The notes beneath the pieces were generated by a model. The model had not been told where the DNA came from. It saw only the letters and a list, made by a program, of their open reading frames with translations, and did not search any database. This document shows positions 5,319 through 35,683 of a stretch of DNA of 64,000 nucleotides, piece by piece. Positions within the stretch are counted from its first letter, which is position 1, and every line of letters starts with the position of its first letter. Source of the stretch: an uncultured Verrucomicrobiota bacterium (GTDB lineage: Bacteria; Verrucomicrobiota; Kiritimatiellia; Kiritimatiellales; Pontiellaceae); contig CAZWZW010000001.1 in assembly GCA_964639125.1 (NCBI GenBank), forward strand, positions 14,483-78,482, read 5' to 3'. The translations under genes were made by a program, and so were the position numbers.

Positions 5319-5321
5319 GGC

Positions 5322-9287: not shown

Positions 9288-9303
9288 CTTAAAGGTGGGA
9301 AAG

Positions 9304-10395: not shown

Positions 10396-11309
<914 letters not shown>

Positions 11310-11334
11310 GATGCAAAGGGAGGGAAGGGGATTC

Positions 11335-12456: not shown

Positions 12457-12458
12457 GG

Positions 12459-12584
12459 CTAGAGCATTTTAGAAATGTCGTATCCGCTTCGTTTATGTAC
12501 TGGAGGGGCGGAGGCTTCTCCGCCCGGGCGCTCGGCGAGCGCCCCTCCACCGAGGTGGCTATGGTTTTGTTTTAAATGCTCTAG
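12459..12584. repeat. 126-bp palindromic intergenic element, copy A (MITE/REP-like)
   Basis: Terminal inverted repeats CTAGAGCATTT / AAATGCTCTAG. Two internal GC hairpins: GGCGGAG-GCTT-CTCCGCC and GGGCGCTC-GGC-GAGCGCCC. About 96% identical, in reverse orientation, to 24066-24165. Confidence 0.85.
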
Positions 12585-13477
12585 TCCCAGAGTCTGGGCG
12601 GATAGGTCCCGGCGGCGTGCATGGCCTGCAGGGCCGCAACGACGGTGGGCTTGTCTTCGGGATAGGTGACGCCGAACCATTTTCCTTCAGAGCTGAGCAC
12701 CTTGACGCGGGTTTGTCCGTTGTTGATCATGTCGTCAACAATTTCCGGGATATACCACTCGGACTTCAGTTCCTGTCCCTTCGCTTTAAGGAATGCGATG
12801 AACTTTTCTTCCAGGGTTTGGAAAAACGAGGGGCTGAAGCCCCAGAAGTTCATGGAGCAGATTTCCTCGCCGGTCATATCGGTGACGGTATTGTTCTCGT
12901 GAAACTGGATGGTGCCGTCTTCGTTGGCTTCAATGTGCGTGCGCTCGACGATGCTGGAAAGAAAGCCATCGGTGGTGCCGCAGATGCCGCGTGAGACGGA
13001 GCCATGAGGCGAAAGCGTATTGCGGATCAGGTAGCCGACCATGCAGCTTTCGCCTTCAGGCATGCTTGCGAACGCCTCGCTGATCGTTTGGTAGGCTTCC
13101 GCTCCATAAAAGTCATCGGCGTTTTGCACGGCAAAGGGTTCGTTGATCAGACCCTTGCAGGCGAGTACGGCCTGGCCGGTGCCCCATGGCTTGGTGCGAC
13201 CCGCGGGGAGGGTGAATCCGTCCGGCAGGTTTTCCAGAGACTGGAACGCATACTGCACCTCGATCATGCCTTCAAAGCGGCTTCCGACCTGTTCCTTGAA
13301 TTCGGCTTCGAAGTCGGTGCGGATGACGAATACGATCTTGCCAAAGCCAGCCTGGATGGCGTCGTGGATGGAATATTCGAGCAGGGTTTCGCCGTTGGGT
13401 CCAACGGGGTCCATTTGCTTGAGTCCGCCATAGCGGCTGCCCATTCCGGCGGCCATGATTACGAGTGTCGGTTTCAT
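12581..13477 (-). CDS. sugar-1-phosphate nucleotidylyltransferase (NTP_transferase family)
   Basis: N-terminal LVIMAAGMGSRYGG pyrophosphorylase loop, KPWGTGQAV, NADDFYG. AAGGAA RBS. The TAG stop lies inside the repeat terminus. Confidence 0.75.
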   Translation of the reverse strand: MKPTLVIMAAGMGSRYGGLKQMDPVGPNGETLLEYSIHDAIQAGFGKIVFVIRTDFEAEFKEQVGSRFEGMIEVQYAFQSLENLPDGFTLPAGRTKPWGTGQAVLACKGLINEPFAVQNADDFYGAEAYQTISEAFASMPEGESCMVGYLIRNTLSPHGSVSRGICGTTDGFLSSIVERTHIEANEDGTIQFHENNTVTDMTGEEICSMNFWGFSPSFFQTLEEKFIAFLKAKGQELKSEWYIPEIVDDMINNGQTRVKVLSSEGKWFGVTYPEDKPTVVAALQAMHAAGTYPPRLWD

Positions 13478-13524: not shown

Positions 13525-15288
13525 CTATTCCGTGGACCGATTTTTATTGTAGAAGAAGCGGAGCACACCGCCTATCACAAGAAAGACGCCGCCGGCATAG
13601 ATAAACAACAGGCGACCGTCAACGTTGTTCGGGATGAGCGCGCCCAGTGTGATGGCCCCGCCGTATACAAAACACATTAGGCTCATGTTTCGGTACTGGG
13701 CGGTATCCTGATTGATGTTGTCTTCGGAGACGTGGTCGATGGGGGTGTTCATATCCTTGTAGAAGGAGTCGACACTTTCACGGTATTCCCTGGTGGCGCA
13801 CTTGTCGTAGAAAAGGGCGGTGATGAAATACCAGATCGTTCCGGCGAGGAGGGTAATGAGTCCGCTAACGATGAAGATCATGTCTTTTGCCTCCAACGCA
13901 TTGAGCGGCATCTGCATGCCGAGCCTTGCCGCCAGCGTTTCAATGTCGAGGAATCGCTGTGTCAACCAGGCGGTGGACATGGAGACCAGCACGGTACTCC
14001 AGCAACTCCAGCCGGGGGTGCGCTTATAGAGAATGCCCAGTACCATCGGGATGATGAGCGGGAACTGGAGCAAGACGTTGAACTTGAGCAGCATCGAGAA
14101 GAGGTCGGCTTCGCGGAACATGGAAATAAGGATGGCCGTTCCCATTACGATACCCCCGAATACGATTGAAAAAACGCGGCCCAGACGGAGCAGGGTCTTT
14201 TCGGAGGCGTTGGGGTTCAAAATATCGCTGTAAAAGTTTTTCACGAAAAATCCGGCGTTTTTATTGAGCGCGGTATCCATGCTCGAAAGCGTTGCAGCAA
14301 AAATGGAGCAGACCATCAGTCCCATCATGCCCTGCGGCAGTACTTTGTTGGCGATGGCAACATAGGCTCCTTCGCTGGCGCTTTTGAGGTTCGGAAACAT
14401 GGAGGGCAAATCAAGGTCCATCATGCCGGCGGCCATGATCGGCGTAAAGGCGATGAGCGGGACGATGGCGGTACCGATGATCATCATCATGCAGGCTTTT
14501 TTAGCGTGCTCGCCATCCTTCACGGTGAGGAACTTGGCTCCGTTGGTGTTCAAGTCCAGTGCGCGAAGTACATTGACGGTGGTGAACATCATCATGAGCG
14601 AAATCCATACTGCGGGACGCTCGAAAATGTTGAAGTTGATGTAGTGCTCCGGAAGTTGGCTGAAGAAGCCGGAAAAACCACCCACCTCCGGAAGCAGCAG
14701 GCTGCGGATAAAGATGGTCGCGGAAACAACGATGATGATCAGCATCTGAATGAAGTCGCTGGCGGAAACGGCATAGGATCCGCCGCTACTGGCCAGTACG
14801 GTGACGGCGATCGCCAGCACGATAATGGTTGGTGTGATGGGAAAGCCGACTGCGGCGCTGACGAACAATGAAATGACATAAAGCATGATGCCGCCCTGGA
14901 AAAGGCCGATCGGCAGGGCCGTCCAGACCCAGAACTGTTCCGTTGGCTTTCCAAAGCGACGGCGGATGGCATCGCAGACGGTGACTGCGCGCATTTGGCG
15001 GTAGCGCGCCGCGAGGAAGAAGTAGATCAATAGGTAGGGAATGAGGCCGAAGAGATAGACGATGACCAGCAGGAAGCCGGTTTCGAACACCTTGGCGCCG
15101 GCGGCGGTAAAAGAGTAGGCCGTCAGACCAACCGCCAGCGATGACATCCCGTTGATCCACCACAGGATGTTTCCGCCCCCGCGGAAAAAGTCGGAGGCAT
15201 TTTTATTGATTCGGCTCCAAAGAAATCCGATGCCCATCATGAAGGTCAGATAAACGCCGATTACTGTATAGTCCCATCCTGTCAGCAT
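13525..15288 (-). CDS. sodium:solute symporter (SSF) family transporter
   Basis: Multi-TM protein with an SSF-like N-terminus, DYTVIGVYLTFMMGIGFLWSR...DFFRGGGN. Start moved to ATG 15288, which has an AGGAG RBS 7 nt upstream. The ORF-track start 15366 has none. Confidence 0.85.
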   Translation of the reverse strand: MLTGWDYTVIGVYLTFMMGIGFLWSRINKNASDFFRGGGNILWWINGMSSLAVGLTAYSFTAAGAKVFETGFLLVIVYLFGLIPYLLIYFFLAARYRQMRAVTVCDAIRRRFGKPTEQFWVWTALPIGLFQGGIMLYVISLFVSAAVGFPITPTIIVLAIAVTVLASSGGSYAVSASDFIQMLIIIVVSATIFIRSLLLPEVGGFSGFFSQLPEHYINFNIFERPAVWISLMMMFTTVNVLRALDLNTNGAKFLTVKDGEHAKKACMMMIIGTAIVPLIAFTPIMAAGMMDLDLPSMFPNLKSASEGAYVAIANKVLPQGMMGLMVCSIFAATLSSMDTALNKNAGFFVKNFYSDILNPNASEKTLLRLGRVFSIVFGGIVMGTAILISMFREADLFSMLLKFNVLLQFPLIIPMVLGILYKRTPGWSCWSTVLVSMSTAWLTQRFLDIETLAARLGMQMPLNALEAKDMIFIVSGLITLLAGTIWYFITALFYDKCATREYRESVDSFYKDMNTPIDHVSEDNINQDTAQYRNMSLMCFVYGGAITLGALIPNNVDGRLLFIYAGGVFLVIGGVLRFFYNKNRSTE

Positions 15289-15310
15289 AACACCACTCCT
15301 TGTCCAAATT

Positions 15311-15389
15311 GATGTCGCAAATTGTATTCTGAAGCACGCCGCCGCACAAATCAAGTTGTACGCCAATTAGATGATTGATTTGCGACATC
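15311..15389. promoter_or_regulatory. pair of perfect 12-bp inverted repeats upstream of the symporter gene
   Basis: GATGTCGCAAAT (15311-15322) and ATTTGCGACATC (15378-15389), 55 bp apart. The proximal arm ends about 10 nt from the symporter RBS. Confidence 0.3.
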
Positions 15390-15518
15390 GGAAGGGCTTT
15401 CACGGGGAGGTGCAAAAACTTAATCTACGTTGAATTTAGCTGAAAACAGGGCTCTTCCCCGGGAACTGGGGGCGTTGGCCTCAAATTCCGGAATACGACC
15501 CCAAGGATAAACAGGACA

Positions 15519-17000
15519 TTAGCGCAGTTCGGCCTGAACACCCAGTTCGCCGAATACGAAGGGCACCTTGATGAAGGCAATCTTCTTGCCGATCTGTCTG
15601 GCTTCGGCTTCGTTGGCGGCTTTGATGGCTTCTTCCTTAAGGGCGGCATCGCCATGGCTGGCTTCGATGGCGGCGGCAATGGTCTTGACCCGGGTGGCCT
15701 TGATGATCTCCGCCATTTCAAAGAGGCCGAGTAGCAGCTGCGCGCCGTAACCGCGGCCGATCACGTCATAGCCCGGACGACCAAAGCCGTGGTCGGAGGC
15801 CGGTGCATGGTCTGGACGGAAGACGCCCTGCCAGCCGAGGTCGACCAATGTATGCACGACCTTGGCCAATTCTTCGCGGTGCTCGGCATGGTGCCCTTCA
15901 CGGAAATTCTTGCCGTCGGTCTCGACCGGTCGCAGGTGGATATGGGGAAAGATTTCCTCCGTCGACATCCCTTTCATGCGGCCATATTCGGCAATCTCAC
16001 GGATCACGGTGGTGATGTCGCGGTTGCTTTCGTTGGCCATTAACGAGCCGATGCACATGTTCACCCCGCAGCCGTGGTCGAGTAGGAATTTGTAACCCTC
16101 CGCTCCGCCGACCGCGCGTGGCGTTCCCAGAAAGGGCGAAAACGCGGGGTCGTCGGCATGGCAGCAGAGGCGCACTCCGGAAGCGGTGGCAACCGGTACG
16201 ACGGCGTTCAGGAAGTAGGCGATATGTTCCTGCAATACATTCACCGACATGCCTTCGTATTTGGACACCGCGGCGCGGAAATCATCGAGTGTGAAACCCT
16301 CTTGCGCGCCGGGCAGGCCGGCGGTGATCATATCGGTCAGCGCTTGCTGGCGCTCCGGGTCGTCCGCAAGATACTTGTTCCAATACAATCGAGCCTCTTC
16401 CACTTCTTCGGCGGAGAATGAGCCGTCGGCGATATAGTCCTGTTCGCTGTCGTGGCGTTTAAGCAGGAAGATGTCGAAGGCGGCAAAAGCGGAGTGGATA
16501 TACTTCAAGGTTGAAGATCCGTCGGGCAGGGTTGCCGTGCTGGTGCGGGTCCAGTCGGCGACCAGCATAAAGTTTCCGACCACGTTGTTGACGCCAAACC
16601 GACCGAGGTTTTTCAGGCTCTGTTTGTAGGTTTCAATATGGTGCTTGCGGTTTGGGCTGCCGTTTTTGATGTCTTCGGTAAACACCAGGCTTTCAGCCGT
16701 GTCCCAGACCAGTCCGGTGCGCTCGCCATGAACTTTATACCATTTGAACAGCGGCATGCCTTCCTCGTCTGGCGGGGCATCGGGGTGGGGCAGGAACTCC
16801 ACCTCGATCTTGCGTTTGGCAATCTCGGCCTCCGTCCAGATTTCGCCGGCGGGAATATGATGCAGGGCCGTAATAATGTTTGTGACGCCCGGCGTTTGTT
16901 GAATGTTGCGTATGGATACCTGATCTTCGGGGCCAAACCAGCGCATGCCGGCACGCACACGTTCCCGATTCCAGTTTTGGTTAAATATTTCGCTCATCAT
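15519..17000 (-). CDS. uxuA: mannonate dehydratase (long form)
   Basis: MRWFGPEDQVSIRNIQQTPGV..ITALHHIPAGEIW, ADWTRTS, LPDGS, GLPGAQEGFTLDDF, HADDP, FRPDHAP all parallel E. coli UxuA. Start taken at the MMSEIF pair (17000/16997). Confidence 0.9.
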   Translation of the reverse strand: MMSEIFNQNWNRERVRAGMRWFGPEDQVSIRNIQQTPGVTNIITALHHIPAGEIWTEAEIAKRKIEVEFLPHPDAPPDEEGMPLFKWYKVHGERTGLVWDTAESLVFTEDIKNGSPNRKHHIETYKQSLKNLGRFGVNNVVGNFMLVADWTRTSTATLPDGSSTLKYIHSAFAAFDIFLLKRHDSEQDYIADGSFSAEEVEEARLYWNKYLADDPERQQALTDMITAGLPGAQEGFTLDDFRAAVSKYEGMSVNVLQEHIAYFLNAVVPVATASGVRLCCHADDPAFSPFLGTPRAVGGAEGYKFLLDHGCGVNMCIGSLMANESNRDITTVIREIAEYGRMKGMSTEEIFPHIHLRPVETDGKNFREGHHAEHREELAKVVHTLVDLGWQGVFRPDHAPASDHGFGRPGYDVIGRGYGAQLLLGLFEMAEIIKATRVKTIAAAIEASHGDAALKEEAIKAANEAEARQIGKKIAFIKVPFVFGELGVQAELR

Positions 17001-17090
17001 ATCCTCTGTTGTTAAACAGCGGCGCAATATGGGTGGTCCGAGGATAAAAATCAATGTTTTTGCTTGCTAAAAATGCAATATAATCGTTTT

Positions 17091-17104
17091 CTCAAACCAT
17101 TGAG
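17091..17104. promoter_or_regulatory. palindrome CTCAA-ACCA-TTGAG in the uxuA/kdgK divergent promoter (operator candidate)
   Basis: Related to the two CTCAAA-NN-TTTGAG sites at 25141 and 25218. Lies about 90 bp from both divergent start codons. Confidence 0.4.
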
Positions 17105-17198
17105 GGTTGAAGTTGGCGGGGTTGTGCTGAAATAAAACAACGGCGGCGCGAATGGAAGATCAGCCGCCGGCCCGAAATAAGCCGTTTATGGAGGAAAT

Positions 17199-18272
17199 AT
17201 GACTGAAACAGCATCAAAAAAGTATTCACTGCTTGTTGCAACCAGCATGGGGGTTCGGCTGACACCGGTGGATTCGCAGCCCTTCCATTGCAGCGATACC
17301 TTCAAAATGCAGGCCACCAGCGCGGAAAGCAATGTGGCTAGTGTTGCTTCGTATCTGGGCATGCCGGTCAAGGTTCTGACGGCCTTCGTTAAGGACAGCC
17401 CCGTATCACACTTCATAAAGGATAACCTCAAAAGCCGCCGCATGGACTTTGAGGGGCCTGAGTTTGAACAGGACAACCCATGGGGCTATCGCCATCAGAT
17501 CAATATGGCCGACAGCGGCTGGGGAGCCCGCGGTCCGAGGGTTCAGAACGATCGAGCCGGTGAAGTCGGTCAGGAGCTGTGTGCGGATGACTTTGATCTC
17601 GAGCGAATATTTGCGGAAGAAGGAGTTGGAATTGTTCATCTATCGGGACTGATTGCCGCGCTATCACCCAAGACCAGCCGCTTTTGTCTTGATATTGCCC
17701 GTGTTGCCAAAGAAAACGGTTCGCTGGTTTCGTTTGATCTCAACCACCGGGCCAGTTTCTGGAAGGGTCGGGAGGAAGAGCTCGCCGAAGCGTTCGCCGA
17801 GATTGCCTCCCGCGCCGATATCCTGATTGGTAACGAGGAAGACTTTCAGCTTTGTCTGGGGATTCAGGGGCCGCAGTCCGGAGGGCAGGGACTGGACGAG
17901 AAGATCGACGGCTTCAAGGAGATGATCGGCCGGGTTCAGGCCGCTTATCCCCAAGCTCGTTATTTCGCGACAACCCTTCGGGAAGTCGTTTCGGCAAACA
18001 GCCATCTGTGGGGCGCGCTGGTCACGGACGGCAAGGAGTGGGAAGTGATCAAGCCGCGCGAGATTGGTGTGCTCGACCGTATTGGCGGCGGGGACGGGTT
18101 TGTCGGCGGGATGCTTTACGGCATTCTAAAGGGGTGGGATGTCGAGCAGTGCGCCCGGTTTGGCTGGGCCAGCGGGGCGCTGGCGGCGACGATGTTGACC
18201 GATTACGCCCAGCCTGCCGATGAAGACCAGCTCTGGAGTATATGGAACGGAAACGCTAGAGTTAAACGTTGA
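17199..18272 (+). CDS. kdgK: PfkB-family sugar-acid kinase (2-dehydro-3-deoxygluconokinase-like)
   Basis: PfkB blocks SFDLNHRASFWKG and DRIGGGDGFVGG. GGAGGA RBS. Context is uxuA/uxaC/eda. Confidence 0.72.
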   Translation: MTETASKKYSLLVATSMGVRLTPVDSQPFHCSDTFKMQATSAESNVASVASYLGMPVKVLTAFVKDSPVSHFIKDNLKSRRMDFEGPEFEQDNPWGYRHQINMADSGWGARGPRVQNDRAGEVGQELCADDFDLERIFAEEGVGIVHLSGLIAALSPKTSRFCLDIARVAKENGSLVSFDLNHRASFWKGREEELAEAFAEIASRADILIGNEEDFQLCLGIQGPQSGGQGLDEKIDGFKEMIGRVQAAYPQARYFATTLREVVSANSHLWGALVTDGKEWEVIKPREIGVLDRIGGGDGFVGGMLYGILKGWDVEQCARFGWASGALAATMLTDYAQPADEDQLWSIWNGNARVKR

Positions 18273-18286
18273 TGGAGATAAATGAT

Positions 18287-19735
18287 ATGAAAGCAGATAT
18301 TGGACTGATTGGATTGGCCGTGATGGGCGAAAACCTTGTGCTCAACATGGAGAGCAAGGGCTTCACCGTGGCGGTGTTCAATCGCACCGTCGAAAAAGTC
18401 GACAAATTTATGGCCGGCCGCGGTGCCGGTAAAAACTTTATTGGGTGTCATAGCATTGAAGAGCTGTGTGCCAACCTCGAACGCCCACGCAAGGTGATGA
18501 TGCTGGTTAAGGCCGGGCAGGCCGTTGACGACTTCATCGAAAAGATCATTCCGCACCTCGAAGAGGGCGATATCATCATCGATGGCGGCAACAGCCACTA
18601 TCCCGATACCATTCGCCGAGCGGAGTATGTTGAAAGCAAAGGGTTGCTCTACATCGGCACCGGTGTTTCCGGAGGGGAAGAGGGTGCATTGCTTGGTCCC
18701 TCCATCATGCCGGGAGGATCGTCCAGCGCATGGGTGTCCGTGAAGCCGATTTTCCAGAAGATATCTGCCCAGACCGAGGCAGGGGAACCTTGCTGCGAAT
18801 GGGTCGGCGATAACGGTGCCGGCCACTTTGTGAAGATGGTGCACAACGGCATTGAATACGGCGACATGCAGATGATCTGCGAAACCTACCAGATGATGAA
18901 GCAAGGGCTCGGGCTCTCCAATGAGCAGATGCACGACGTCTTCAAGGAGTGGAACGAGAGCGAACTCGATTCCTATCTCATCGAAATCACCCGCGATATC
19001 CTCGGCTACAAAACCGAAGTGGGGGAAGCGGTCATCGATCAGATTCTCGACACCGCCGGACAGAAGGGTACCGGAAAATGGACTGCGGTTTCCGCGCTGG
19101 ATTTTGGCCAGCCGCTGACCCTCATCGGCGAAGCCGTTTTTGCCCGGTGTCTTTCCGCACTGAAAAATGAACGTGTCGAGGCCGCAAAGGTGCTTACGGG
19201 GCCGTCGGTCACCTTCGATGGCGACAAGGCCGCTCTGATCGACGATCTCAAACAGGCGCTCTATGCCTCGAAAATTGTTTCCTACGCTCAGGGGTACCAG
19301 CTCATGCGAGCCGCCGCCGAAGAATATGGATGGACGCTCAACAATGGTGAGATTGCATTGATGTGGCGGGGTGGATGCATCATCCGCTCGGTCTTCCTCG
19401 GCAAGATCAAGGAAGCATTCGACACGAAACCCGATCTCGTCAACCTGCTGCTGGATCCGTTTTTCAAGGATGCGGTTGAAAACGCGCAGGCGGCCTGGCG
19501 ACGCGTCATCATGAAGTCGGTGGAACTCGGTATCCCGATGCCGGCCATCAGTGCGGCGCTGGCTTATTTCGACGGCTACCGCGCGGCTCGCCTTCCGGCC
19601 AACCTGTTGCAGGCACAGCGCGATTATTTCGGTGCGCACACCTACGAACGCGTCGACAAACCTCGCGGCGAATTCTACCACACCAACTGGACAGGCCGCG
19701 GGGGCAATACTTCCGCGTCCACCTACATCGCGTAG
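18287..19735 (+). CDS. gnd: 6-phosphogluconate dehydrogenase, decarboxylating (NADP-type fingerprint)
   Basis: IGLIGLAVMGENL (GxAxxG), FNRT 2'-phosphate motif, GTGVSGGEEGA, GHFVKMVHNGIEYGDMQ, QAQRDYFGAHTYER. ATG 18287 follows a GGAGA RBS. Confidence 0.92.
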   Translation: MKADIGLIGLAVMGENLVLNMESKGFTVAVFNRTVEKVDKFMAGRGAGKNFIGCHSIEELCANLERPRKVMMLVKAGQAVDDFIEKIIPHLEEGDIIIDGGNSHYPDTIRRAEYVESKGLLYIGTGVSGGEEGALLGPSIMPGGSSSAWVSVKPIFQKISAQTEAGEPCCEWVGDNGAGHFVKMVHNGIEYGDMQMICETYQMMKQGLGLSNEQMHDVFKEWNESELDSYLIEITRDILGYKTEVGEAVIDQILDTAGQKGTGKWTAVSALDFGQPLTLIGEAVFARCLSALKNERVEAAKVLTGPSVTFDGDKAALIDDLKQALYASKIVSYAQGYQLMRAAAEEYGWTLNNGEIALMWRGGCIIRSVFLGKIKEAFDTKPDLVNLLLDPFFKDAVENAQAAWRRVIMKSVELGIPMPAISAALAYFDGYRAARLPANLLQAQRDYFGAHTYERVDKPRGEFYHTNWTGRGGNTSASTYIA

Positions 19736-19804
19736 ACGATGCTTCCCGCTTCGTTGCGGCTGCATGGCAACGAAGCAAGATGCTTCGTCTACATTGGAGA
19801 CCAC

Positions 19805-21091
19805 ATGATCAGTAAATTTGGCGAAGATATTTCCATTCAGCAGGATGAATTACGCGAATTGGTTTTCCAAACCCTGGAAACCTCCGACCAGCCTTTGCGG
19901 AAGGTATTGATCCTTCCACCGGACCATACCCGCCTGAATTCCATGGCGGGACCGATTACGGCGATGGTTTACGAAAAGCTCACGGCGGCCGGTACGCAGG
20001 TGGATATTCTTCCAACCCTTGGAACGCACAATCCCATGACCGAAGCGCAGCTGCGCATGATGTTCGGCGACTCGATTCCGCTCGAAGCATTTAAGGTGCA
20101 TGACTGGCGCAATGAGGTGGTTCGGAAGGGATTGGTCGAAGGGGAGATGCTCGCGGAACTTTCCGGCGGGAAGGTGGATTATACCGTGGGCGTGGAAGTC
20201 AACAAGATGCTGTTCGATGGCTATGATCTGATGCTCTCTGTCGGGCAGGTGGTGCCGCACGAGGTGGTCGGCATGGCCAACTACACCAAAAACATTGTCG
20301 TGGGTGCCGGCGGATCGGACATTATCAATAAGTCGCACTTTCTCGGCGCGGTGGCTGGCATTGAAAATATTCTCGGGCAGACCGACTCGCCCGTACGCAG
20401 GCTCTTCAACCATGCGGTGGGTGAATATCTGTCCGATTTGCCGATCACTTACATCCTGACCGTAATGGAACAGGACTACAACTCCCGTGAAATGCACATG
20501 CGCGGCTTCTATGCCGGCGACGAGGTGGCTGTGTTCGAAGAGGCCTGCAAGCTGGCGCGTGCGGTGAACATTACCCTGCTCGATCGCGAGCCGAAGAAGG
20601 TGGTGGTCTATCTCGATCCACACGAATTTCAGAGCACGTGGCTCGGCAACAAGTCGGTCTACCGCACGCGCATGGCCATCGCGGATGATGGCGAATTGAT
20701 CGTGCTCGCCCCGGCGCTCAAGGAGTTTGGCGAAGATCCGACCATCGATCGCCTGATCCGCAAGTTTGGCTATTGCGGAACGCCCGCGACGCTCAAGGCG
20801 GTGGAGGAAGACGAAGAGCTCGGCGGCAATCTGGGTGCGGCGGCGCACCTGATCCACGGTTCGTCGGAAGGGCGTTTTAAGATTACGTATTGCCCGGGCG
20901 AGGGTGGTGTAACACTCGATGAAGTGCGCTCGGTTGGTTTTGCGGCCGCATCTTACGATGAAATGGCCGCGCGCTATAATCCGGAAACGCTCAAGGATGG
21001 CTTTAATACGCAGCCCGACGGCGAAGAAATTTTCTATATCAGCAACCCCGCCCTTGGCCTTTGGGCCTACAAGGAAAAATTCGCCCGGTAG
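19805..21091 (+). CDS. LarA-like (lactate racemase N-terminal domain / DUF2088) hydroxyacid racemase/epimerase family protein
   Basis: LarA active-site pattern retained: PPDHTR, LGTHNP, PHEVVGMANYTK (H-x9-K), and a His 16 residues after that Lys (NKSHF). ATG 19805 follows a GGAGA RBS. Confidence 0.75.
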   Translation: MISKFGEDISIQQDELRELVFQTLETSDQPLRKVLILPPDHTRLNSMAGPITAMVYEKLTAAGTQVDILPTLGTHNPMTEAQLRMMFGDSIPLEAFKVHDWRNEVVRKGLVEGEMLAELSGGKVDYTVGVEVNKMLFDGYDLMLSVGQVVPHEVVGMANYTKNIVVGAGGSDIINKSHFLGAVAGIENILGQTDSPVRRLFNHAVGEYLSDLPITYILTVMEQDYNSREMHMRGFYAGDEVAVFEEACKLARAVNITLLDREPKKVVVYLDPHEFQSTWLGNKSVYRTRMAIADDGELIVLAPALKEFGEDPTIDRLIRKFGYCGTPATLKAVEEDEELGGNLGAAAHLIHGSSEGRFKITYCPGEGGVTLDEVRSVGFAAASYDEMAARYNPETLKDGFNTQPDGEEIFYISNPALGLWAYKEKFAR

Positions 21092-21117
21092 GGCTCGATA
21101 TTTAAAGAGGAAATCGA

Positions 21118-22524
21118 ATGAAAAATACAGATATTGGAATGATCGGCATGGGAGTTATGGGGTCCAACCTTGCCCGCAACATGGTTTCGAAGGGGTTTCG
21201 GGTGTCGTGCTACGACTGGGACGAATCCTTGCGCAATAGTTTTGCCGGGCAGTATACGGAAGGCTTTGTCCATGCGGGCGACCTGAAGGAATTTGTTGCG
21301 TCGATTGAGCGACCGCGCAAAATCATGATGATGATCAAGGCGGGGTCGCCTGTGGATTCCGTGCTCAACGAACTGGCTCCGCTGCTGGAGCCCGGCGATG
21401 TGCTGATTGATGGCGGAAACTCGCAATGGCAGGATACGGATCGACGTATTGAGTTTTGCGAAGAACAGGGCTTGCTCTTTGTCGGTTGCGGTGTGTCCGG
21501 CGGTGAAGAAGGCGCGCTCAACGGTCCAGCGCTGATGCCGGGAGGATCGGCCGGAGCGTGGGATTTGATCCAGCCCATCTTCGAGGCGATTGCCGCACGT
21601 ACGGCCAAGGGCGATGTCTGCGTGGGATGGATCGGGCGGGGGGGCTCAGGTCATTTTGTAAAGATGGTGCACAACGGCATTGAGTATGGCGATATGCAGA
21701 TGACCTGCGAAACCTATCAGGTGATGCGCGATGGCCTCGGCATGTCGAACATTGCGATGTCGGAGGTGTTTGGCCGCTGGAACAAAGGAAAACTGAATTC
21801 CTACCTGATTGAAATCACGCGGGATATTCTGGCCTTCGAGACCGAAGGGGGTGAACAACCGGTTGACTACATTCTCGATGCCGCCGGGCAGAAGGGCACC
21901 GGCAAGTGGACGCTGATTGCGGCACTGGATGCCGGCGAGCCGTTGCCGTTGATTGGCGAGGCGGTATTTGCCCGCTGTCTTTCGGCGCTGAAGAGCGATC
22001 GCGAAATGGCCGCGTCACTGTTGCCGGGGCCAAAACCCCACATCGATGTTGAGCCGGAGGATTTTGTTGCGGAGGTAAAGGAGGCGCTTTATGGGTCGAA
22101 GATCATTTCCTATGCGCAGGGCTTCCAACTAATTCAGCAGGTATCGAAAGAACGCAACTGGAACATTGATCTTTCCGGTTTGGCCCAACTGTGGCGGGGC
22201 GGGTGTATTATTCGGTCGACGTTGTTGCGTACAATCAAGGAAGCCTTCGAACGGAATCCCGATTTAACGAATCTGCTGCTCGACCCTCTCATCTCTGAAT
22301 CGGTCGGCGAGGCTCAGGTTCACTGGCGCAATGCCGTGGCGCGGATGACGCGCGCGGGTATCGCGTCTCCGGCGATGAGCTCGGCGCTTTCGTACTATGA
22401 CGGTTTCCGCACAGCGCGGGGCTCGGCCAACCTGTTGCAGGCACAGCGCGACTATTTCGGGGCGCATACCTACGAGCGTACCGACCGGCCGCGCGGCGAG
22501 TTTTTCCACACCCAATGGAACTGA
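21118..22524 (+). CDS. gnd: 6-phosphogluconate dehydrogenase paralogue (NAD-type fingerprint, short C-terminus)
   Basis: Same catalytic blocks as gnd at 18287 (GCGVSGGEEGA, GHFVKMVHNGIEYGDMQ, QAQRDYFGAHTYER). Differs in IGMIGMGVMGSNL (GxGxxG) and YDWD in place of FNRT. Ends at HTQWN. Confidence 0.88.
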   Translation: MKNTDIGMIGMGVMGSNLARNMVSKGFRVSCYDWDESLRNSFAGQYTEGFVHAGDLKEFVASIERPRKIMMMIKAGSPVDSVLNELAPLLEPGDVLIDGGNSQWQDTDRRIEFCEEQGLLFVGCGVSGGEEGALNGPALMPGGSAGAWDLIQPIFEAIAARTAKGDVCVGWIGRGGSGHFVKMVHNGIEYGDMQMTCETYQVMRDGLGMSNIAMSEVFGRWNKGKLNSYLIEITRDILAFETEGGEQPVDYILDAAGQKGTGKWTLIAALDAGEPLPLIGEAVFARCLSALKSDREMAASLLPGPKPHIDVEPEDFVAEVKEALYGSKIISYAQGFQLIQQVSKERNWNIDLSGLAQLWRGGCIIRSTLLRTIKEAFERNPDLTNLLLDPLISESVGEAQVHWRNAVARMTRAGIASPAMSSALSYYDGFRTARGSANLLQAQRDYFGAHTYERTDRPRGEFFHTQWN

Positions 22525-22541
22525 AATCTACCGAGGAAAGA

Positions 22542-23966
22542 ATGATGAAAAAATTCATGGATGACGATTTCCTGCTGCAGACCAAGACGGCCAAAAAACT
22601 TTATCATAACCATGCGGCGAAGATGCCGATCTATGACTACCACTGCCATTTGCCGACGCAGGAGATTGCCGAAGACAAACAGTATGACAACCTCGGCGAG
22701 ATCTGGCTGGGTGGAGACCACTACAAGTGGCGCGCCATGCGGACCAACGGCGTAGCCGAAGAATATGTGACCGGCGAACAGGATGGGTATGCCAAGTTTG
22801 AAAAGTGGGCGGAGACCGTGCCGCAGACACTACGCAACCCGCTCTACCACTGGACGCATCTGGAGTTGAAGCGCGTCTTCGGGGTCGAGGAACTGCTCAG
22901 TCCGGCCACCGCAAAGGAGATCTTCGATCGCTGTACGGCACTGCTGCGCACGCCGGAATATTCGGCACGAAACCTGATGCGCAAAATGAATGTCAAGCTG
23001 GTCTGCACCACCGACGATCCGGTCGACTCGCTTGAATATCACAAGCATCTTCAGCAGGAAGGGTTCGAGATCAAGGTGCTGCCGACCTTTCGTCCCGACA
23101 AGGCGGCCCACCTGGCCGACCCCGCGGCATATCGGGAATATATCCAAACCCTGGAAAATGTTTCCGGTATCTGCATCAAGGATTTTTCCTCGCTGGTCGA
23201 AGCGGTCGACAATCGGCATGAATATTTTCATTCCGTTGGTTGCCGCCTGTCGGATCACGGCGTGGCCTATGTGCCCGATGCGGAAGCGTCGGAGTCCGAA
23301 CTGGACGCCACCTTCAAGAAGGTGATGAAGGGCAAGGCAGTATCGGCCGAGGACGCAGATGCCTTTCTTGCCGCGTTCCTCTATGAAGCCGGAAAAATGA
23401 ACCACAAGCGCGGTTGGGCGCAGCAGTTCCATGTCGGCGTCTTTCGCAACAACAACAGCCGCCTGTTCAAGGCGCTGGGCCCCGATACGGGGTTCGATTC
23501 GATTGCCGACTATCGCCAGGGGCCGGGGCTGATCCGGTTGCTGGATCGTCTCGACAGCTCCAACCAGCTAGCCAAATCCATTCTCTACAACATTAATCCG
23601 GCCGACAACGAGCTGATGGCCACGATGATCGGTAACTATCAGGATGGCTCGTGCCCCGGTAAAATGCAGTTTGGTTCGGGGTGGTGGTTTCTCGATCAGA
23701 AGGATGGCATGGAAAAGCAGATGAATGCACTCTCCCAGCTCGGGTTGCTCAGCCGCTTTGTCGGCATGCTAACCGATTCGCGCAGCTTTCTCTCTTACTC
23801 GCGGCACGAATATTTCCGTCGGATCCTCTGCAACCTGCTCGGCAACGATGTGGAGAACGGGGAAATCCCGGCCGATATGGAACGGCTGGGAGCCATGGTC
23901 GAAAACATCTGCTATAACAATGCGGTCGAATATTTCGGGATCCAACCCGGGGCCGAAAACGAATAA
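22542..23966 (+). CDS. uxaC: glucuronate isomerase
   Basis: FMDDDFLLQTKTAKKLYHNHA..PIYDYHCHL matches the UxaC N-terminus, as do later blocks DHYKWR and GSGWWFLDQKDGM. GAGGAAAG RBS before ATG 22542. Confidence 0.92.
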   Translation: MMKKFMDDDFLLQTKTAKKLYHNHAAKMPIYDYHCHLPTQEIAEDKQYDNLGEIWLGGDHYKWRAMRTNGVAEEYVTGEQDGYAKFEKWAETVPQTLRNPLYHWTHLELKRVFGVEELLSPATAKEIFDRCTALLRTPEYSARNLMRKMNVKLVCTTDDPVDSLEYHKHLQQEGFEIKVLPTFRPDKAAHLADPAAYREYIQTLENVSGICIKDFSSLVEAVDNRHEYFHSVGCRLSDHGVAYVPDAEASESELDATFKKVMKGKAVSAEDADAFLAAFLYEAGKMNHKRGWAQQFHVGVFRNNNSRLFKALGPDTGFDSIADYRQGPGLIRLLDRLDSSNQLAKSILYNINPADNELMATMIGNYQDGSCPGKMQFGSGWWFLDQKDGMEKQMNALSQLGLLSRFVGMLTDSRSFLSYSRHEYFRRILCNLLGNDVENGEIPADMERLGAMVENICYNNAVEYFGIQPGAENE

Positions 23967-24065
23967 GACCGTGCTGCTTGAAGTCAATGGGCGGCGGCAT
24001 AATGGAATCCCCGTAACCGTTTTGTTCCAGCACCGCGTTTCTAATCCGGACGGTTGATTCGGGCG

Positions 24066-24165
24066 TTAAAACAAAACCATTGCCACCTCGATGGAGGGGC
24101 GCTCGCCGAGCGCCCGGGCTCCAGTACATAAACGAAGCGGATACGACATTTCTTAAAATGCTCTA
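24066..24165. repeat. 100-bp palindromic intergenic element, copy B (reverse orientation, one terminus degraded)
   Basis: Its reverse complement aligns to 12459-12584 with 1 single-nt indel, 2 mismatches and one 17-nt deletion (the first hairpin). Retains GGGCGCTC-GCC-GAGCGCCC and one AAATGCTCTA terminus. Confidence 0.85.
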
Positions 24166-25131
24166 ACCGGAGTTTCGGATGATCAGTTCCGGGGGCAACA
24201 GATGGGTTTCGTTCGGGCAGTCGCCGTTGGCAACGGCTTCAAAAACTTTCTCCGCGATCTCTGCAATGGGCTGCCGGATCGAGGTGAGTGGCGGCAGGAA
24301 CTGGGCGGCGGCGGGGATGTCGTCGTACCCGACGACTTTCAGGTCTTCGGGGATTCGAATGCTCGCATCGCTTGCGGCATGGATGGCCCCCATGGCAATC
24401 CGGTCGTTGCCGCACACCAGCGCATGCAGGCGGCCTTGTTCGAGGAGTTGCAGGGTCAGCTTTCGGCCAATATCGAAAGAGGTGTGTTCATGATTCGAAC
24501 CGAAGTGTACTGAGATCTCCAGCTCGGGGGCGGCATTCTTGAAGATCTCGCTGCGTTTGCGGTGGATTGCCGTGTCGGCACCAAGGAAGGTGGCCTTTTG
24601 AAGGTGGCTTGCCTGGAAGTGTTCGGCGAGCTGGGCATACCCGGACTGTTCGTCGGAGGTGACTTTGAGGGATTGGATATTTTCGTTTCCATAGCCTATG
24701 CGGGCGCAGGGCAAATGACTGAAATTTTCCGGCCAGCTCTCCGCCAGGTCACTGCCTACGGCAATGATTCCATCAAGGTTGAATTTGGATAAGGGCTGGA
24801 GGTCTCGTTCGTTCGGGACGCGGTTCTGGAACCCGACCAGCAGCAGGGTGTAGCTATGGTCGTGTGCGAGGGATTGCAGGTGGTGGACCATCGTTCCGAA
24901 GAAGGGGTCTTTAAAGTCGTAAACCACTACGCCGATGGTACGGGTGGATTTCCCTTTGAGGCTTAGCGCGGCGGCACTGGGCACGTATCCCATTTTTTCG
25001 GCGGTTATCATGACCCGCTCGATGGTATCTGGCGCAATGCCGATTTCCGCCGCTTTTCCTGATAATACGCGCGATACCAGCGCAATGGATACGCCCAGCT
25101 TTTCTGCAATCTGTTTCTGGTTTACCGCCAT
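24163..25131 (-). CDS. LacI family transcriptional regulator
   Basis: N-terminal HTH MAVNQKQIAEKLGVSIALVSRVLSG followed by a periplasmic-binding-fold sugar domain. The TAG stop is inside repeat copy B. Confidence 0.9.
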   Translation of the reverse strand: MAVNQKQIAEKLGVSIALVSRVLSGKAAEIGIAPDTIERVMITAEKMGYVPSAAALSLKGKSTRTIGVVVYDFKDPFFGTMVHHLQSLAHDHSYTLLLVGFQNRVPNERDLQPLSKFNLDGIIAVGSDLAESWPENFSHLPCARIGYGNENIQSLKVTSDEQSGYAQLAEHFQASHLQKATFLGADTAIHRKRSEIFKNAAPELEISVHFGSNHEHTSFDIGRKLTLQLLEQGRLHALVCGNDRIAMGAIHAASDASIRIPEDLKVVGYDDIPAAAQFLPPLTSIRQPIAEIAEKVFEAVANGDCPNETHLLPPELIIRNSG

Positions 25132-25140
25132 TAGGGTCTC

Positions 25141-25154
25141 CTCAAACTTTTGAG
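25141..25154. promoter_or_regulatory. perfect palindrome CTCAAA-CT-TTTGAG (operator candidate overlapping the lacI-family gene RBS)
   Basis: 6-bp arms. Lies 10 bp upstream of the LacI-family start codon on the minus strand and overlaps its GAGGAG RBS. Confidence 0.45.
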
Positions 25155-25217
25155 ATCATGGTTTTTGGGGATATAAAAAGCAAGTTTTAGCTTGATAATT
25201 TTGGATAAAAGGTCTAT

Positions 25218-25231
25218 CTCAAACATTTGAG
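25218..25231. promoter_or_regulatory. perfect palindrome CTCAAA-CA-TTTGAG (operator candidate upstream of the SDR-kinase-eda operon)
   Basis: 6-bp arms, 24 bp upstream of ATG 25255. Flanks resemble the 25141 site (GGTCT..CTCAAAC). Confidence 0.45.
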
Positions 25232-25254
25232 GAAAATTATTTGGAGGTATAGAG

Positions 25255-26067
25255 ATGAAGTTGTTTGATCTGTCGGGAAAAGTCATCGCCATTACTGGAG
25301 CAGCTGGAGTGCTGGCTGGTGGAACGGCAAAATATTTACAGGAACAAGGCGCGTATGTCATCTATTTGGATTTGCATCAAGAGGCGGTCGATAAGACCGT
25401 TGAAGAGGCCAGGAAGATTTCTGAAAAGTGCTGTGGCTATGCCTGCAACGTGCTCGACCAGGCGGCGCTGGATGGCGTATATGAAAAAATCATGAGCGAG
25501 ATCGGCCGCGTCGATGTCCTCATCAACGGCGCAGGCGGCAACATGCCCGGAGCCACCATTGGCCCTGATCAGGATGTGTTCGATCTGAAGATCGATGACT
25601 ACAGCAAGGTCGTGGATCTCAATCTGAAGGGGACGGTTATGCCGACCATGACCTTTGCCAAGGCCTTCAAGGCCCAGAAGTCAGGTTGTGTCGTCAACTT
25701 TTCGTCGATGTCGGCGACACAGGCGCTGACCCGCGTGCTCGGTTATTCCAACGCCAAGGCGGCAATCGACAACTTTACAAGATGGATGGCGACCGAAATG
25801 GCGCTGAAATATGGTTCGGCTGTTCGCGTCAACGCACTGGCCCCGGGCTTCTTTATCGGAAACCAGAATCGTGCCTTGCTGATCAATGAAGACGGATCAT
25901 ACACGGAACGCGGCCAACAGGTCATCAACAAGACCCCGTTCCGCCGGTTTGGGGAGCAGGAAGAGGTTTACGGAACCATCCATTACCTGATTTCGGATGC
26001 CGCCGCCTTTGTGAGCGGAGTAATTGTTCCGGTTGATGGTGGTTTTTCCGCATACACAGGGGTTTAG
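25255..26067 (+). CDS. SDR family oxidoreductase, UxuB-type D-mannonate/fructuronate reductase candidate
   Basis: GKVIAITGAAGVLAGG cofactor motif, NGAGGN, SSMS...YSNAKAA (YxxxK). GGAGG RBS. Hexuronate context. Confidence 0.72.
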   Translation: MKLFDLSGKVIAITGAAGVLAGGTAKYLQEQGAYVIYLDLHQEAVDKTVEEARKISEKCCGYACNVLDQAALDGVYEKIMSEIGRVDVLINGAGGNMPGATIGPDQDVFDLKIDDYSKVVDLNLKGTVMPTMTFAKAFKAQKSGCVVNFSSMSATQALTRVLGYSNAKAAIDNFTRWMATEMALKYGSAVRVNALAPGFFIGNQNRALLINEDGSYTERGQQVINKTPFRRFGEQEEVYGTIHYLISDAAAFVSGVIVPVDGGFSAYTGV

Positions 26068-26071
26068 ATTT

Positions 26072-27172
26072 ATGGCATCATTGATGGTTAAGTCCGCGGA
26101 GGATTGTCGCTATGACATCCTGTCGTTGGGGGAAGTCATGCTTCGCCTCGATCCCGGCGAAGGGCGCATCCGCACAGCGCGCCAGTTCCGCGCCTGGGAA
26201 GGTGGCGGCGAATACAACGTGGCGCGCGGCCTGCGCCGCTGCTTTGGCCAGCGCGCGGCCATTGCAACCGCCGTTGCCCGGAACGAGGTCGGTCTGTTGA
26301 TGGAGGACTTTATCCTGCAGGGCGGGGTGGATCCCTCGCTGATCAAGTGGATGGACTATGACGGCATCGGTCGGACTGTACGCAACGGCATGAATTTTAC
26401 CGAGCGCGGTTTTGGCCTCCGTGGCGCAGTCGGCTGTTCCGACCGCGGCAACACCGCGGCGTCGCACCTGAAGACCGGAGATATCGATTGGGAATATATC
26501 TTCGGTACGCTCGGGGTGCGCTGGTTTCACACCGGCGGCATCTTTGCAGCCTTGTCCGGAACGACCGGCGATGTCGTGATCGAGGCGGCCAGGTCCGCCA
26601 AAAAATATGGAACCATCGTTTCGTACGACCTCAACTACCGCCCATCGCTTTGGAAAGGTTTTGGCGGGCTCGAGAAATGTCGCGAGATCAACCGCGAGAT
26701 TGCAGAATATGTCGATGTGATGATTGGCAACGAAGAGGACTTTACCGCCTGCCTCGGCTTTGAGGTGGAGGGTACGGACGAAAACCTGACCGATCTCGAT
26801 GTCGGCTCGTTCCAGAAAATGATCGAAAAAGCCGTGGCCGAGTTTCCGAACTTCAAGGCCACCGCCACCACGATGCGCGGCGTCAAAACCGCGACGGTCA
26901 ACGATTGGGGCGCCATGTGCTGGGTCGACGGCAGGTTCTACACCGCCACGCATCGCCCGGAGCTGGAAATCATGGACCGTGTCGGTGGGGGAGACAGCTT
27001 TGCCTCCGGCTTTATCTATGGTCTGATGGAGCTGGGCGATCCAGCCAAGGCTATTGAATACGGCGCCGCGCACGGTGCGCTGGCTATGACCACGCCGGGC
27101 GATACCACGATGGCTTCGCTTGCGGAAGTTGAAAAGGTGGTTGCGGGTGCGGGCGCACGCGTGGACCGTTAA
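26072..27172 (+). CDS. PfkB-family sugar-acid kinase, second paralogue (KDG kinase-like)
   Basis: SYDLNYRPSLWKG, DRVGGGDSFASG. Start taken at ATG 26072 (MASLMVK), just after the SDR stop. Confidence 0.72.
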   Translation: MASLMVKSAEDCRYDILSLGEVMLRLDPGEGRIRTARQFRAWEGGGEYNVARGLRRCFGQRAAIATAVARNEVGLLMEDFILQGGVDPSLIKWMDYDGIGRTVRNGMNFTERGFGLRGAVGCSDRGNTAASHLKTGDIDWEYIFGTLGVRWFHTGGIFAALSGTTGDVVIEAARSAKKYGTIVSYDLNYRPSLWKGFGGLEKCREINREIAEYVDVMIGNEEDFTACLGFEVEGTDENLTDLDVGSFQKMIEKAVAEFPNFKATATTMRGVKTATVNDWGAMCWVDGRFYTATHRPELEIMDRVGGGDSFASGFIYGLMELGDPAKAIEYGAAHGALAMTTPGDTTMASLAEVEKVVAGAGARVDR

Positions 27173-27837
27173 TGATGGAACAATTCAACGGAGTTGATTT
27201 TATGTTGAATGAACTTTTGAAACGGCCGGTGATCCCGGTGATTGTCATCGACGATGCCAACGATGCGGAACCCTTGGCGGAAGCCCTGCTGGAAGGCGGG
27301 ATGGATGTCATCGAAGTAACCTGCCGCACAGCGGCGGCACCCGAAGCACTGGCGCGCATTAAGAAGGCCTTCCCGGATATGTTGCTGGGGGCCGGCACGG
27401 TGGTGACACCCGATCAGGCGAAAATGTGCATCGATACCGGCGTCGGCTTTGGTCTGGCGCCGGGACTGAATCCCGATACCGTGCGGTTCTTCCAGCAAAA
27501 CGACACGCTCTTCATTCCGGGCATCATGACCCCGTCGGAAATCGAACAGGGGTTGGCGCTGGGCTGCCGGATGCTCAAGTTTTTCCCGGCCGGTGCGGCA
27601 GGTGGCGTGAATATGCTAAAGAACCTGGGCGCACCCTATGCATCGTTCGGGGTTCGGTTTTGCCCGACCGGCGGGCTGAATCTCGCCAATATGAATGACT
27701 ATTTGTCGATGCCGATTGTAAGTGCGATTGGTGGATCATGGTTGGCAACCAAGCAGCAGATTGCGGATAAGCAGTGGGGGCTCATCACCGAACAGGTCAA
27801 GGCTGCGCTCGCGAAGGCGGCCGAGGTTTGTGGCTAA
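27172..27837 (+). CDS. eda: 2-dehydro-3-deoxyphosphogluconate (KDPG) aldolase
   Basis: VIPVIVIDD, IEVTCRT, GAGTV, KFFPA, and a C-terminal GGSWL-type block typical of Eda. TAATG overlap with the kinase. Confidence 0.88.
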   Translation: MMEQFNGVDFMLNELLKRPVIPVIVIDDANDAEPLAEALLEGGMDVIEVTCRTAAAPEALARIKKAFPDMLLGAGTVVTPDQAKMCIDTGVGFGLAPGLNPDTVRFFQQNDTLFIPGIMTPSEIEQGLALGCRMLKFFPAGAAGGVNMLKNLGAPYASFGVRFCPTGGLNLANMNDYLSMPIVSAIGGSWLATKQQIADKQWGLITEQVKAALAKAAEVCG

Positions 27838-27874
27838 AGCGTTCCTAAGGAGACAACATTGGGGCCAATTTTAT

Positions 27875-27910
27875 AAATATATCGAGATATTTATTCGTGT
27901 AAGTTACACG
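27875..27910. promoter_or_regulatory. two adjacent palindromes in the AT-rich region upstream of ftsQ
   Basis: AAATATATCGAGATATTT (27875-27892, 1 mismatch) and CGTGTAA-G-TTACACG (27896-27910, perfect 7-bp arms), about 95-130 bp upstream of ATG 28003. Confidence 0.3.
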
Positions 27911-28002
27911 TAGATAACAAATTGAAACTTTAGTTGCTTGCGGGCGTTGAATCATGGCACGGGCTCATCTATAGTTCCGCCATTCTTTTAAGGGTGTAGG
28001 GG

Positions 28003-34804: not shown

Positions 34805-34810
34805 GGAATT

Positions 34811-35680: not shown

Positions 35681-35683
35681 GTT

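Follow-up and report, generated by a model that had tools for sequence, protein, structure and literature searches.

A link from mannonate through gluconate to the pentose-phosphate pathway was proposed in 2012 for gntE of Thermotoga maritima by Rodionova et al., as that work is cited in PMC7583248 and PMC6978723, and the activity of GntE, a homologue of the lactate racemase LarA, was demonstrated in 2020 (PMC7583248). This study examines a LarA homologue of the same branch in a stretch of 64,000 nucleotides (hereafter, the window; contig CAZWZW010000001.1) from an uncultured member of the Pontiellaceae (Verrucomicrobiota, Kiritimatiellales). Its gene, at positions 19805-21091, lies between two genes for 6-phosphogluconate dehydrogenases (6PGDH) in a uronate operon, and it probably encodes a C2-epimerase that depends on the nickel-pincer nucleotide (NPN) and interconverts D-mannonate and D-gluconate.

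LarA homologues (LarAH) were divided into groups by Desguin et al. in 2020, who labelled group 18 "putative hexonate epimerase / G2E3" (PMC7583248). The signature of this group consists of Glu-Val after the catalytic His and a Trp in the helix that precedes the catalytic Lys (TWLGNK) (PMC7583248). According to Table S1 of the same paper, group-18 genes have as neighbours genes for a short-chain dehydrogenase/reductase (SDR, 36%), 6PGDH (32%), a ribokinase-family kinase (16%), and the glucuronate isomerase UxaC (12%). LarAH15 from Phytophthora nicotianae was later described as an epimerase of narrow spectrum for gluconate/mannonate (Km for mannonate 9.4 mM, kcat 111 per s; PMC11770544, Urdiain-Arraiza 2024). 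For three characterised enzymes of the GntE branch, LarAH15 among them as a likely group-18 member, the turnover of free mannonate is 59-197 per s (PMC7583248, PMC11770544).

A group-18 LarA homologue with intact catalytic residues

The start at 19805 fits an identical 428-aa protein in the protein collection (P0001), which is perhaps the window's own product. Against the NCBIfam model NF052594, "nickel-dependent putative hexonate epimerase" (NPN_18_hexonate), the protein scores 606.8 bits over profile positions 4-410 of 411, with an equivalog cut-off of 500, and all remaining LarA-family NCBIfam models stay below 55 bits. The name of NF052594 matches group 18 in the LarAH classification by Desguin et al. 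(PMC7583248).

The catalytic set of LarA (D72, H108, H174, and K298) and its NPN-binding set (R75, K184, and H200) were used for comparison, and all seven residues have equivalents in the 428-aa protein. D40-H41-T42-R43 corresponds to LarA D72/R75, G73-T74-H75 to H108, P151-H152 followed after nine residues by K162 to H174/K184, H178, which stands exactly 16 residues past K162, to H200, and K283 within STWLGNK to K298. The earlier note on this DNA had reported the motifs DHTR, GTH, PH-x9-K, and the His at +16; each of them is present, and K283 is kept too. D40, R43, H75, H152, K162, H178, and K283 are invariant in an alignment with ten sequences, including seven published group-18 members to which the window protein is 43-54% identical, and are also invariant across 37 close homologues. 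The group-18 signature is present and invariant in the alignment as well, namely as PHEV (E-V after the catalytic His, a loop characteristic of GntEs) and STWLGNK. This invariance among group-18 sequences argues for family membership and not for a chance match to the motifs.

The closest PDB entry by sequence is 4NAR (E 3.4e-30), i.e., T. maritima GntE2, for which D-mannonate/D-gluconate 2-epimerase activity was measured in 2020 (PMC7583248). An AlphaFold model of the window protein (mean pLDDT 72.5, pTM 0.76) matches the fold of 4NAR with TM values of 0.78/0.80, and all 19 structural matches with E <= 0.001 are LarA-family structures, 4NAR being the first. A place among the non-catalytic DUF2088 members, which the earlier note had listed as an outcome to check for, is excluded because of the NF052594 score, the invariant residues, and the match to 4NAR in both sequence and fold; the protein groups with the catalytic members. 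Taken together, its sequence is most likely that of an NPN-dependent LarAH group-18 enzyme of the GntE branch, with D-mannonate/D-gluconate as the probable substrate pair.

The cloning primer of LarAH15 (PMC11770544 data) encodes M-A-T-L-L-F-A-E-G, which matches the LarA-domain start MTLLFAEG of PITG_09435 from P. infestans, a group-18 sequence in the 2020 dataset. From this match, we infer that LarAH15 belongs to group 18, which thereby includes a biochemically characterised enzyme. Reading the name LarAH15 as group 15 of the 2020 paper was rejected; that group is of the Anaeromyxobacter type and without the catalytic residues. Diatom group-18 sequences are approximately 48% identical to the window protein.

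The uronate operon, the proposed shunt, and related loci

On the + strand, pfkB1, gnd1, larAH, gnd2, and uxaC follow each other in this order and all co-directionally at window positions 17199-23966. The gaps are 14 nt (pfkB1/gnd1), 69 nt (gnd1/larAH), and 26 nt (larAH/gnd2). The genes gnd2 and uxaC share 10 nt; should UxaC begin at an internal Met, 17-20 nt would lie between them. The listing of open reading frames (ORFs) and the Pfam and NCBIfam scans thus bear out the gene order and the short gaps of 14-69 nt given in the earlier note. The gene for the mannonate dehydratase, uxuA, is divergent from this operon, and the window also holds a complete parallel route, made up of UxuA, an SDR-type D-mannonate oxidoreductase, the kinase PfkB2, and the aldolase Eda. 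The genes and sites of this region are as follows (KDG, 2-keto-3-deoxygluconate; KDPG/KHG, 2-keto-3-deoxy-6-phosphogluconate/2-keto-4-hydroxyglutarate).

13525-15366, - strand: SSF sodium:solute symporter (PF00474, E 1.5e-32), downstream of uxuA
15519-17054, - strand: UxuA mannonate dehydratase (PF03786, E 3.5e-74; NF003027, 296 bits, cut-off 191)
17091-17104, no strand: palindrome CTCAAACCATTGAG in the uxuA/pfkB1 divergent promoter region, candidate operator
17199-18272, + strand: PfkB1, a KdgK-like PfkB kinase (PF00294), proposed gluconate 6-kinase or mannonate 6-kinase
18287-19735, + strand: Gnd1, decarboxylating 6-phosphogluconate dehydrogenase (TIGR00873, 777.8 bits; motif VFNRT)
19805-21091, + strand: LarA homologue, LarAH group 18 (PF09861 Lar_N, E 2.5e-13; NF052594, 606.8 bits)
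21118-22524, + strand: Gnd2, second full-length 6PGDH (TIGR00873, 666.8 bits; D-W-D for N-R-T)
22515-23966, + strand: UxaC glucuronate isomerase, last gene of the operon (PF02614, 693.8 bits; NF002794, 650 bits)
24163-25131, - strand: LacI-family regulator (PF00356, PF13377, PF00532), candidate repressor
25141-25154, no strand: palindrome CTCAAACTTTTGAG in the lacI/SDR divergent promoter region
25218-25231, no strand: palindrome CTCAAACATTTGAG in the lacI/SDR divergent promoter region
25255-26067, + strand: SDR-type D-mannonate oxidoreductase, i.e., fructuronate reductase (NF006132, 345.4 bits, cut-off 281)
26024-27172, + strand: PfkB2, canonical KDG kinase candidate beside eda (PF00294); a start at ~26072 is more likely
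27172-27837, + strand: Eda, KDPG/KHG aldolase (PF01081, E 4.1e-60; TIGR01182, 225.6 bits, cut-off 156)

Since its orthologues are 492-494 aa long, the real start of UxuA is probably downstream of 17054. The best NCBIfam matches of PfkB2 are KDG kinase models, every one of them under its cut-off. The SSF symporter is, by its position, a possible uptake system for the pathway substrate.

In the proposed pathway, UxaC would isomerise glucuronate, and the SDR D-mannonate oxidoreductase would reduce the product to mannonate, a step used by both of the following branches. The Ashwell branch would lead from mannonate via UxuA and the KdgK-type kinase PfkB2 to Eda. In the shunt, the LarA homologue would epimerise mannonate at C2 to gluconate by an NPN hydride-shuttle mechanism, PfkB1 would phosphorylate gluconate at C6, and Gnd1 (NADP-type) or Gnd2 (NAD-type) would decarboxylate 6-phosphogluconate to ribulose-5-phosphate. 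UxuA and the epimerase would compete for mannonate. As the shunt would spend one reduced cofactor and get one back, it would be redox-neutral. We infer these steps from gene content, including the substrate of the epimerase, the specificity of the kinase, the cofactor of Gnd2, and the supply of NPN.

The set that characterises the Thermotoga-type shunt, i.e., UxaC, fructuronate reductase, epimerase, and Gnd, is encoded together in the window, and so are all four of the published group-18 neighbour types (SDR, 6PGDH, ribokinase-family kinase, and UxaC). A route from mannonate via gluconate to Gnd, parallel to UxuA-KdgK-Eda, had been put forward in the earlier note, and judged by gene context it is the best-supported reading, but it is not new. 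Nor is there support for the hint given there that such an operon had not been described, considering the link proposed by Rodionova et al. in 2012 and the neighbours listed in Table S1 of PMC7583248. Because that table already lists the association of group 18 with these neighbours, it is confirmed and extended here, not discovered. The shunt interpretation makes chemical sense and finds good support in the gene context, but it repeats a published model; modest novelties are a PfkB kinase clade dedicated to the cassette, a second Gnd of probable NAD type, and a candidate operator.

Close homologues of the window LarA homologue are numerous, with more than 100 clusters at 78-89% identity, one of which is named "D-mannonate epimerase" by NCBI. 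The named ones belong to the Pontiellaceae, other Kiritimatiellales, and one planctomycete, Novipirellula. The exact arrangement of the window, i.e., uxuA and then divergently pfkB, gnd, larAH, gnd, and uxaC, is found in Pontiella desulfatans and P. sulfatireligans. Tichowtungia has pfkB-gnd-larAH, and Novipirellula SDR-pfkB-gnd-larAH. In Novipirellula artificiosorum (L005), the kinase, Gnd1, and the epimerase are 88-90% identical to those of the window, as close as Pontiella itself, and the SDR is 75% identical, which suggests that the cassette passed recently from one phylum to another.

A scan of species-representative genomes added 80 further loci among the matches listed, mostly from Verrucomicrobiota, Lentisphaerota, and Bacteroidota and mostly at 55-65% identity; the window's own genome is not among them. 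Neighbours within 10 kb were counted in 83 non-redundant related loci, and these counts, like the other survey figures below, refer to the matches listed. A Gnd1-type 6PGDH lies near larAH in 59/83 loci, in agreement with the co-occurrence of larA-like genes with gnd that the earlier note had proposed to check. An SDR is found in 50/83 loci, a PfkB1-type kinase, 65-73% identical across phyla in the genomes scanned, in 47/83, UxaC in 27/83, a KdgK-type second kinase in 13/83, Eda in 11/83, and UxuA in 8/83. Of the 46 loci whose flanks reach at least 5 kb on each side, 36 contain the kinase or Gnd. The recurring core thus comprises SDR, PfkB1, LarAH18, and Gnd, whose combined action would turn fructuronate into ribulose-5-phosphate.

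Clustering of the remaining ORFs yielded UxaE (32 loci), a PdxB-like dehydrogenase (35), a GFO/IDH/MocA oxidoreductase (21), LacI regulators (31), and MFS transporters (18). UxaE is a tagaturonate epimerase family (PF16257; e.g., L053:4784-6031), and the loci that carry it belong to Bacteroidota and other phyla; none was seen in the window. It would let galacturonate in via fructuronate and mannonate, as in T. maritima. The PdxB-like D-2-hydroxyacid dehydrogenase, which has a DUF3410 domain, lies between larAH and gnd, mostly in Bacteroidota. The example at L054:12355-13485 scores 463.5 bits with NF001309 (cut-off 434) and 287 with NF011966 (cut-off 687). It could be an ordinary pdxB held in place by synteny; alternatively, its substrate could be a phosphorylated 2-hydroxy acid of the pathway.

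Paralogous dehydrogenases, kinases, and a candidate operator

Gnd1 and Gnd2 are 56% identical, and both are full-length and above the TIGR00873 cut-off of 426.7 bits (777.8 and 666.8 bits, respectively), with the catalytic and substrate motifs (GHFVKMVHNGIEYGDMQ, QRDYFGAH) kept in both. Gnd1 carries N-R-T, a triad that binds NADP's 2'-phosphate, and N-R-T or N-R-S is found in all 59 cassette Gnds of other loci in which the region is readable, among the matches listed. At the N-R-T position, Gnd2 and its P. desulfatans orthologue both have D-W-D, and D-W-[D/N/S] occurs in 49/49 of the closest relatives of Gnd2 (P0241-P0289, 64-90% identity), of which the named ones are all Kiritimatiellales. 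Relatives of Gnd2 at <=62% identity mostly have N-R-T. Natural NAD-preferring 6PGDHs have a conserved Asp at the first position of this motif, and N32D/E-R33I-T34I mutants of 6PGDH switch their preference to NAD+ (Chen 2016, PMC5090862). Gnd2 resembles these enzymes in having Asp at the N32 position and in being without Arg33; it differs from them in that its D-W-[D/N/S] clade is uncharacterised and is labelled NADP-dependent by NCBI. From the motif alone, Gnd2 is predicted to prefer NAD+, and the NCBI label "decarboxylating NADP(+)-dependent" on this Kiritimatiellales clade is probably wrong.

Gnd2 is found at the same operon position in P. desulfatans and P. sulfatireligans, and farther members of its clade occupy other gene contexts. 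Given these other contexts, the D-W-[D/N/S] motif throughout the clade, and the N-R-T of most sequences beyond it, Gnd2 is not a recent tandem duplicate of Gnd1; it is an old, lineage-specific, and probably NAD-type 6PGDH that was recruited into the operon only in Pontiella-like genomes.

The closest PDB entry to PfkB1 is 2AFB, T. maritima KdgK, and no NCBIfam model scores PfkB1 above its cut-off. PfkB1 is 31% identical to PfkB2, and its orthologues are named only "sugar kinase" or "2-dehydro-3-deoxygluconokinase" in databases. By sequence comparison, it represents a distinct, highly conserved KdgK-like PfkB clade that belongs to the cassette. A role as a plain KDG kinase was considered and judged unlikely, because PfkB2 adjoins eda and at least nine surveyed loci carry both kinase types; the substrate of PfkB1 is probably other than KDG despite the database label. 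A further reading, speculative and unlikely, is that PfkB1 would stand for an unrecognised family of sugar-acid 6-kinases mislabelled as KDG kinases, and that in Pontiella-like anaerobes the additional NAD-type Gnd2 would leave the path from hexuronate to pentose phosphate NADH-neutral.

The palindrome CTCAAAC-NN-TTGAG has three sites in the 64 kb against 0.16 expected, a chance estimate that is optimistic since the pattern was derived from the same three sites. All of its window sites fall within the two divergent promoter regions of uronate genes. At the corresponding position it recurs in three related Kiritimatiellota loci, namely between uxuA and pfkB1 in P. desulfatans and in Tichowtungia and, in a related metagenome-assembled genome, upstream of the cassette (L001:7242-7255, L004:7333-7346, and L007:1971-1984), and it is present in 0 of the other 82 loci among the matches listed. 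It is plausible that the palindrome is an operator that would place both mannonate branches in one regulon, and the LacI-family protein (24163-25131) is a candidate repressor of both operons, which may act through these sites. A generic scan for promoters and terminators at 15300-28100 gave counts no higher than in shuffled sequences, and no claim about transcription units rests on it.

Elsewhere in the window, positions 379-13477, upstream of the uronate genes, encode a 1212-aa PL8 polysaccharide lyase with DUF1961, a GDSL esterase, an AraC regulator, a PIG-L deacetylase, a NagB-like isomerase, two APH-family kinases, a GalE-like epimerase, and a nucleotidyltransferase. Taken with the uronate genes, they suggest a utilisation region for glycosaminoglycan-type substrates (uronic acid plus amino sugar). 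The minus-strand genes at 32413-36094, directly after ftsQAZ, have N-terminal methylation motifs and domains resembling type II secretion protein K (T2SS-K) and PilN, and are a pseudopilin cluster of a type II secretion or type IV pilus system.

Alternative readings and comparison with described systems

Several observations weigh against a shunt in which the LarA homologue epimerises free mannonate and PfkB1 phosphorylates the gluconate formed. The confidence of the AlphaFold model is only moderate, and it is poor in the active-site loops (pLDDT <50). A Pfam scan of all large ORFs revealed no recognised gluconate kinase (FGGY or GntK-type) in the window, and the closest structure to PfkB1 is a KDG kinase; since the cassette kinase is PfkB/KdgK-like, the locus departs from the Thermotoga-type shunt, to which a gluconate kinase of recognised type belongs. 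The enzymes with measured activity (GntE1, GntE2, and LarAH15) lie outside the 82-89% identity clade of the window protein, and LarAH15 has a high Km for mannonate and was assayed with a substrate panel without phosphorylated acids. As to the cofactor, no larB, larC, or larE was found among all 57 large ORFs of the 64-kb window by Pfam scan, and a PP-loop motif (LarE-like, SGGxDS) was absent from 3312 flank ORFs within 10 kb in 85 loci among the matches listed, which is a weak test. The order of the two middle steps might be reversed, with PfkB1 acting as a mannonate 6-kinase and the LarA homologue converting 6-phosphomannonate to 6-phosphogluconate. Such a sequence was observed in extracts of Lactobacillus suebicus, where mannonate and ATP gave 6-phosphomannonate and then 6-phosphogluconate, with no free gluconate and no genes assigned (PMC6978723), and a literature search found no later gene identification for this route. 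It would also agree with a cassette kinase that is not a recognised gluconate kinase, with kinase and epimerase genes that are usually adjacent among the matches listed, and with the Km of 9.4 mM that LarAH15 shows for free mannonate in a panel lacking phospho-substrates. However, the candidates named by the L. suebicus authors are GntK homologues, not PfkB kinases (PMC6978723), no phosphate-binding feature has been demonstrated in the window sequence, and the three characterised GntE-branch enzymes turn over the free acid at 59-197 per s. This free-acid activity favours the order in which epimerisation comes first, and the reversed order, the chief alternative, is considered unlikely.

That the enzyme acts instead on another hexonate or sugar acid (altronate/allonate, L-gulonate/L-idonate, or an aldarate), with an indirect linkage to Gnd, is improbable. 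The cautious wording of Desguin et al., who wrote only "putative hexonate epimerase" for group 18 and suspected a substrate other than mannonate for the sister group 19, leaves room for it, as do the "putative" retained by NCBIfam and the extra dehydrogenases (PdxB-like, GFO/IDH/MocA) beside the gene in other loci. On the other hand, among hexonates only gluconate feeds 6PGDH once phosphorylated, and its sole C2 epimer is mannonate; the SDR scores above the cut-off of the D-mannonate oxidoreductase model, the UxaE of many loci converges on fructuronate and mannonate, and the spectrum of LarAH15 is very narrow and centred on gluconate/mannonate. It is still less probable, to the point of being remote, that the gene is an inactive relic of a horizontally acquired cassette in a host that does not make NPN. 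The lack of lar biosynthesis genes in the window and in the related-locus flanks searched, and the 88-90% identity of the cassette to that of the planctomycete Novipirellula, which suggests inter-phylum transfer, would fit a relic. Such genes are, however, commonly unlinked from larA homologues and are not among the published group-18 neighbours, the operon structure is kept in three Pontiella-like genomes, and purifying selection is strong, with more than 100 clusters at 78-89% identity and no change at any catalytic residue. Epimerisation of free mannonate, followed by phosphorylation and decarboxylation, is therefore retained as the preferred reading.

If this reading holds, group-18 LarA homologues of Kiritimatiellota, Planctomycetota, Lentisphaerota, and Bacteroidota can be annotated as parts of a self-contained module leading from fructuronate to ribulose-5-phosphate. 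A redox-neutral branch from mannonate would matter for strict anaerobes that ferment polysaccharides rich in uronic acids. A literature search on Kiritimatiellota and lactate racemase found nothing.

Compared with the lactate racemase LarA of L. plantarum (5HUQ), the window protein has the same Lys and His for NPN binding, the same pair of catalytic His, and the same fold (TM ~0.6), but E-V instead of F-F after the catalytic His and only ~15% identity in the structural alignment; LarA gave no match at E <= 1 in the PDB sequence search with the window protein. GntE1 of Corynebacterium glutamicum (LarAH19) resembles it in belonging to the GntE branch, in the E-V/S loop signature, and in its uronate-linked context. 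It differs in its Km of 120 mM for mannonate, because of which the native substrate of GntE1 has been doubted, and in that group-19 genes often have larB and larE next to them (33%), unlike those of group 18. With LarAH15 of P. nicotianae, for which gluconate/mannonate 2-epimerase activity was measured, the window protein would share the group-18 lineage, whereas LarAH15 is eukaryotic, has no operon context, and was assayed with a panel that left phosphorylated substrates aside.

At the level of pathways, the route in L. suebicus (Valk 2020, PMC6978723) has the same overall course from mannonate via 6-phosphogluconate to ribulose-5-phosphate and the same redox-neutral rationale in an anaerobe, but its steps run in the reverse order, no genes are assigned to it, and its candidate kinases are GntK homologues. 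The hexuronate locus of T. maritima follows the same pathway logic as the window, namely an SDR reductase, an epimerase, a kinase, and then Gnd into the pentose-phosphate pathway, and T. maritima GntE2 (LarAH20, 4NAR) shares the fold and the catalytic residues of the window protein and is its best PDB match. GntE2 belongs, however, to LarAH group 20, is ~20% identical over the structural alignment, and is not accompanied by a second Gnd, and the partner kinase of group 20 is FGGY-type (COG1070, 86% of group-20 loci) instead of the PfkB kinase found in the window. The current understanding of this pathway, which had already been proposed and partly demonstrated, is thus extended by the Pontiellaceae locus and not overturned.

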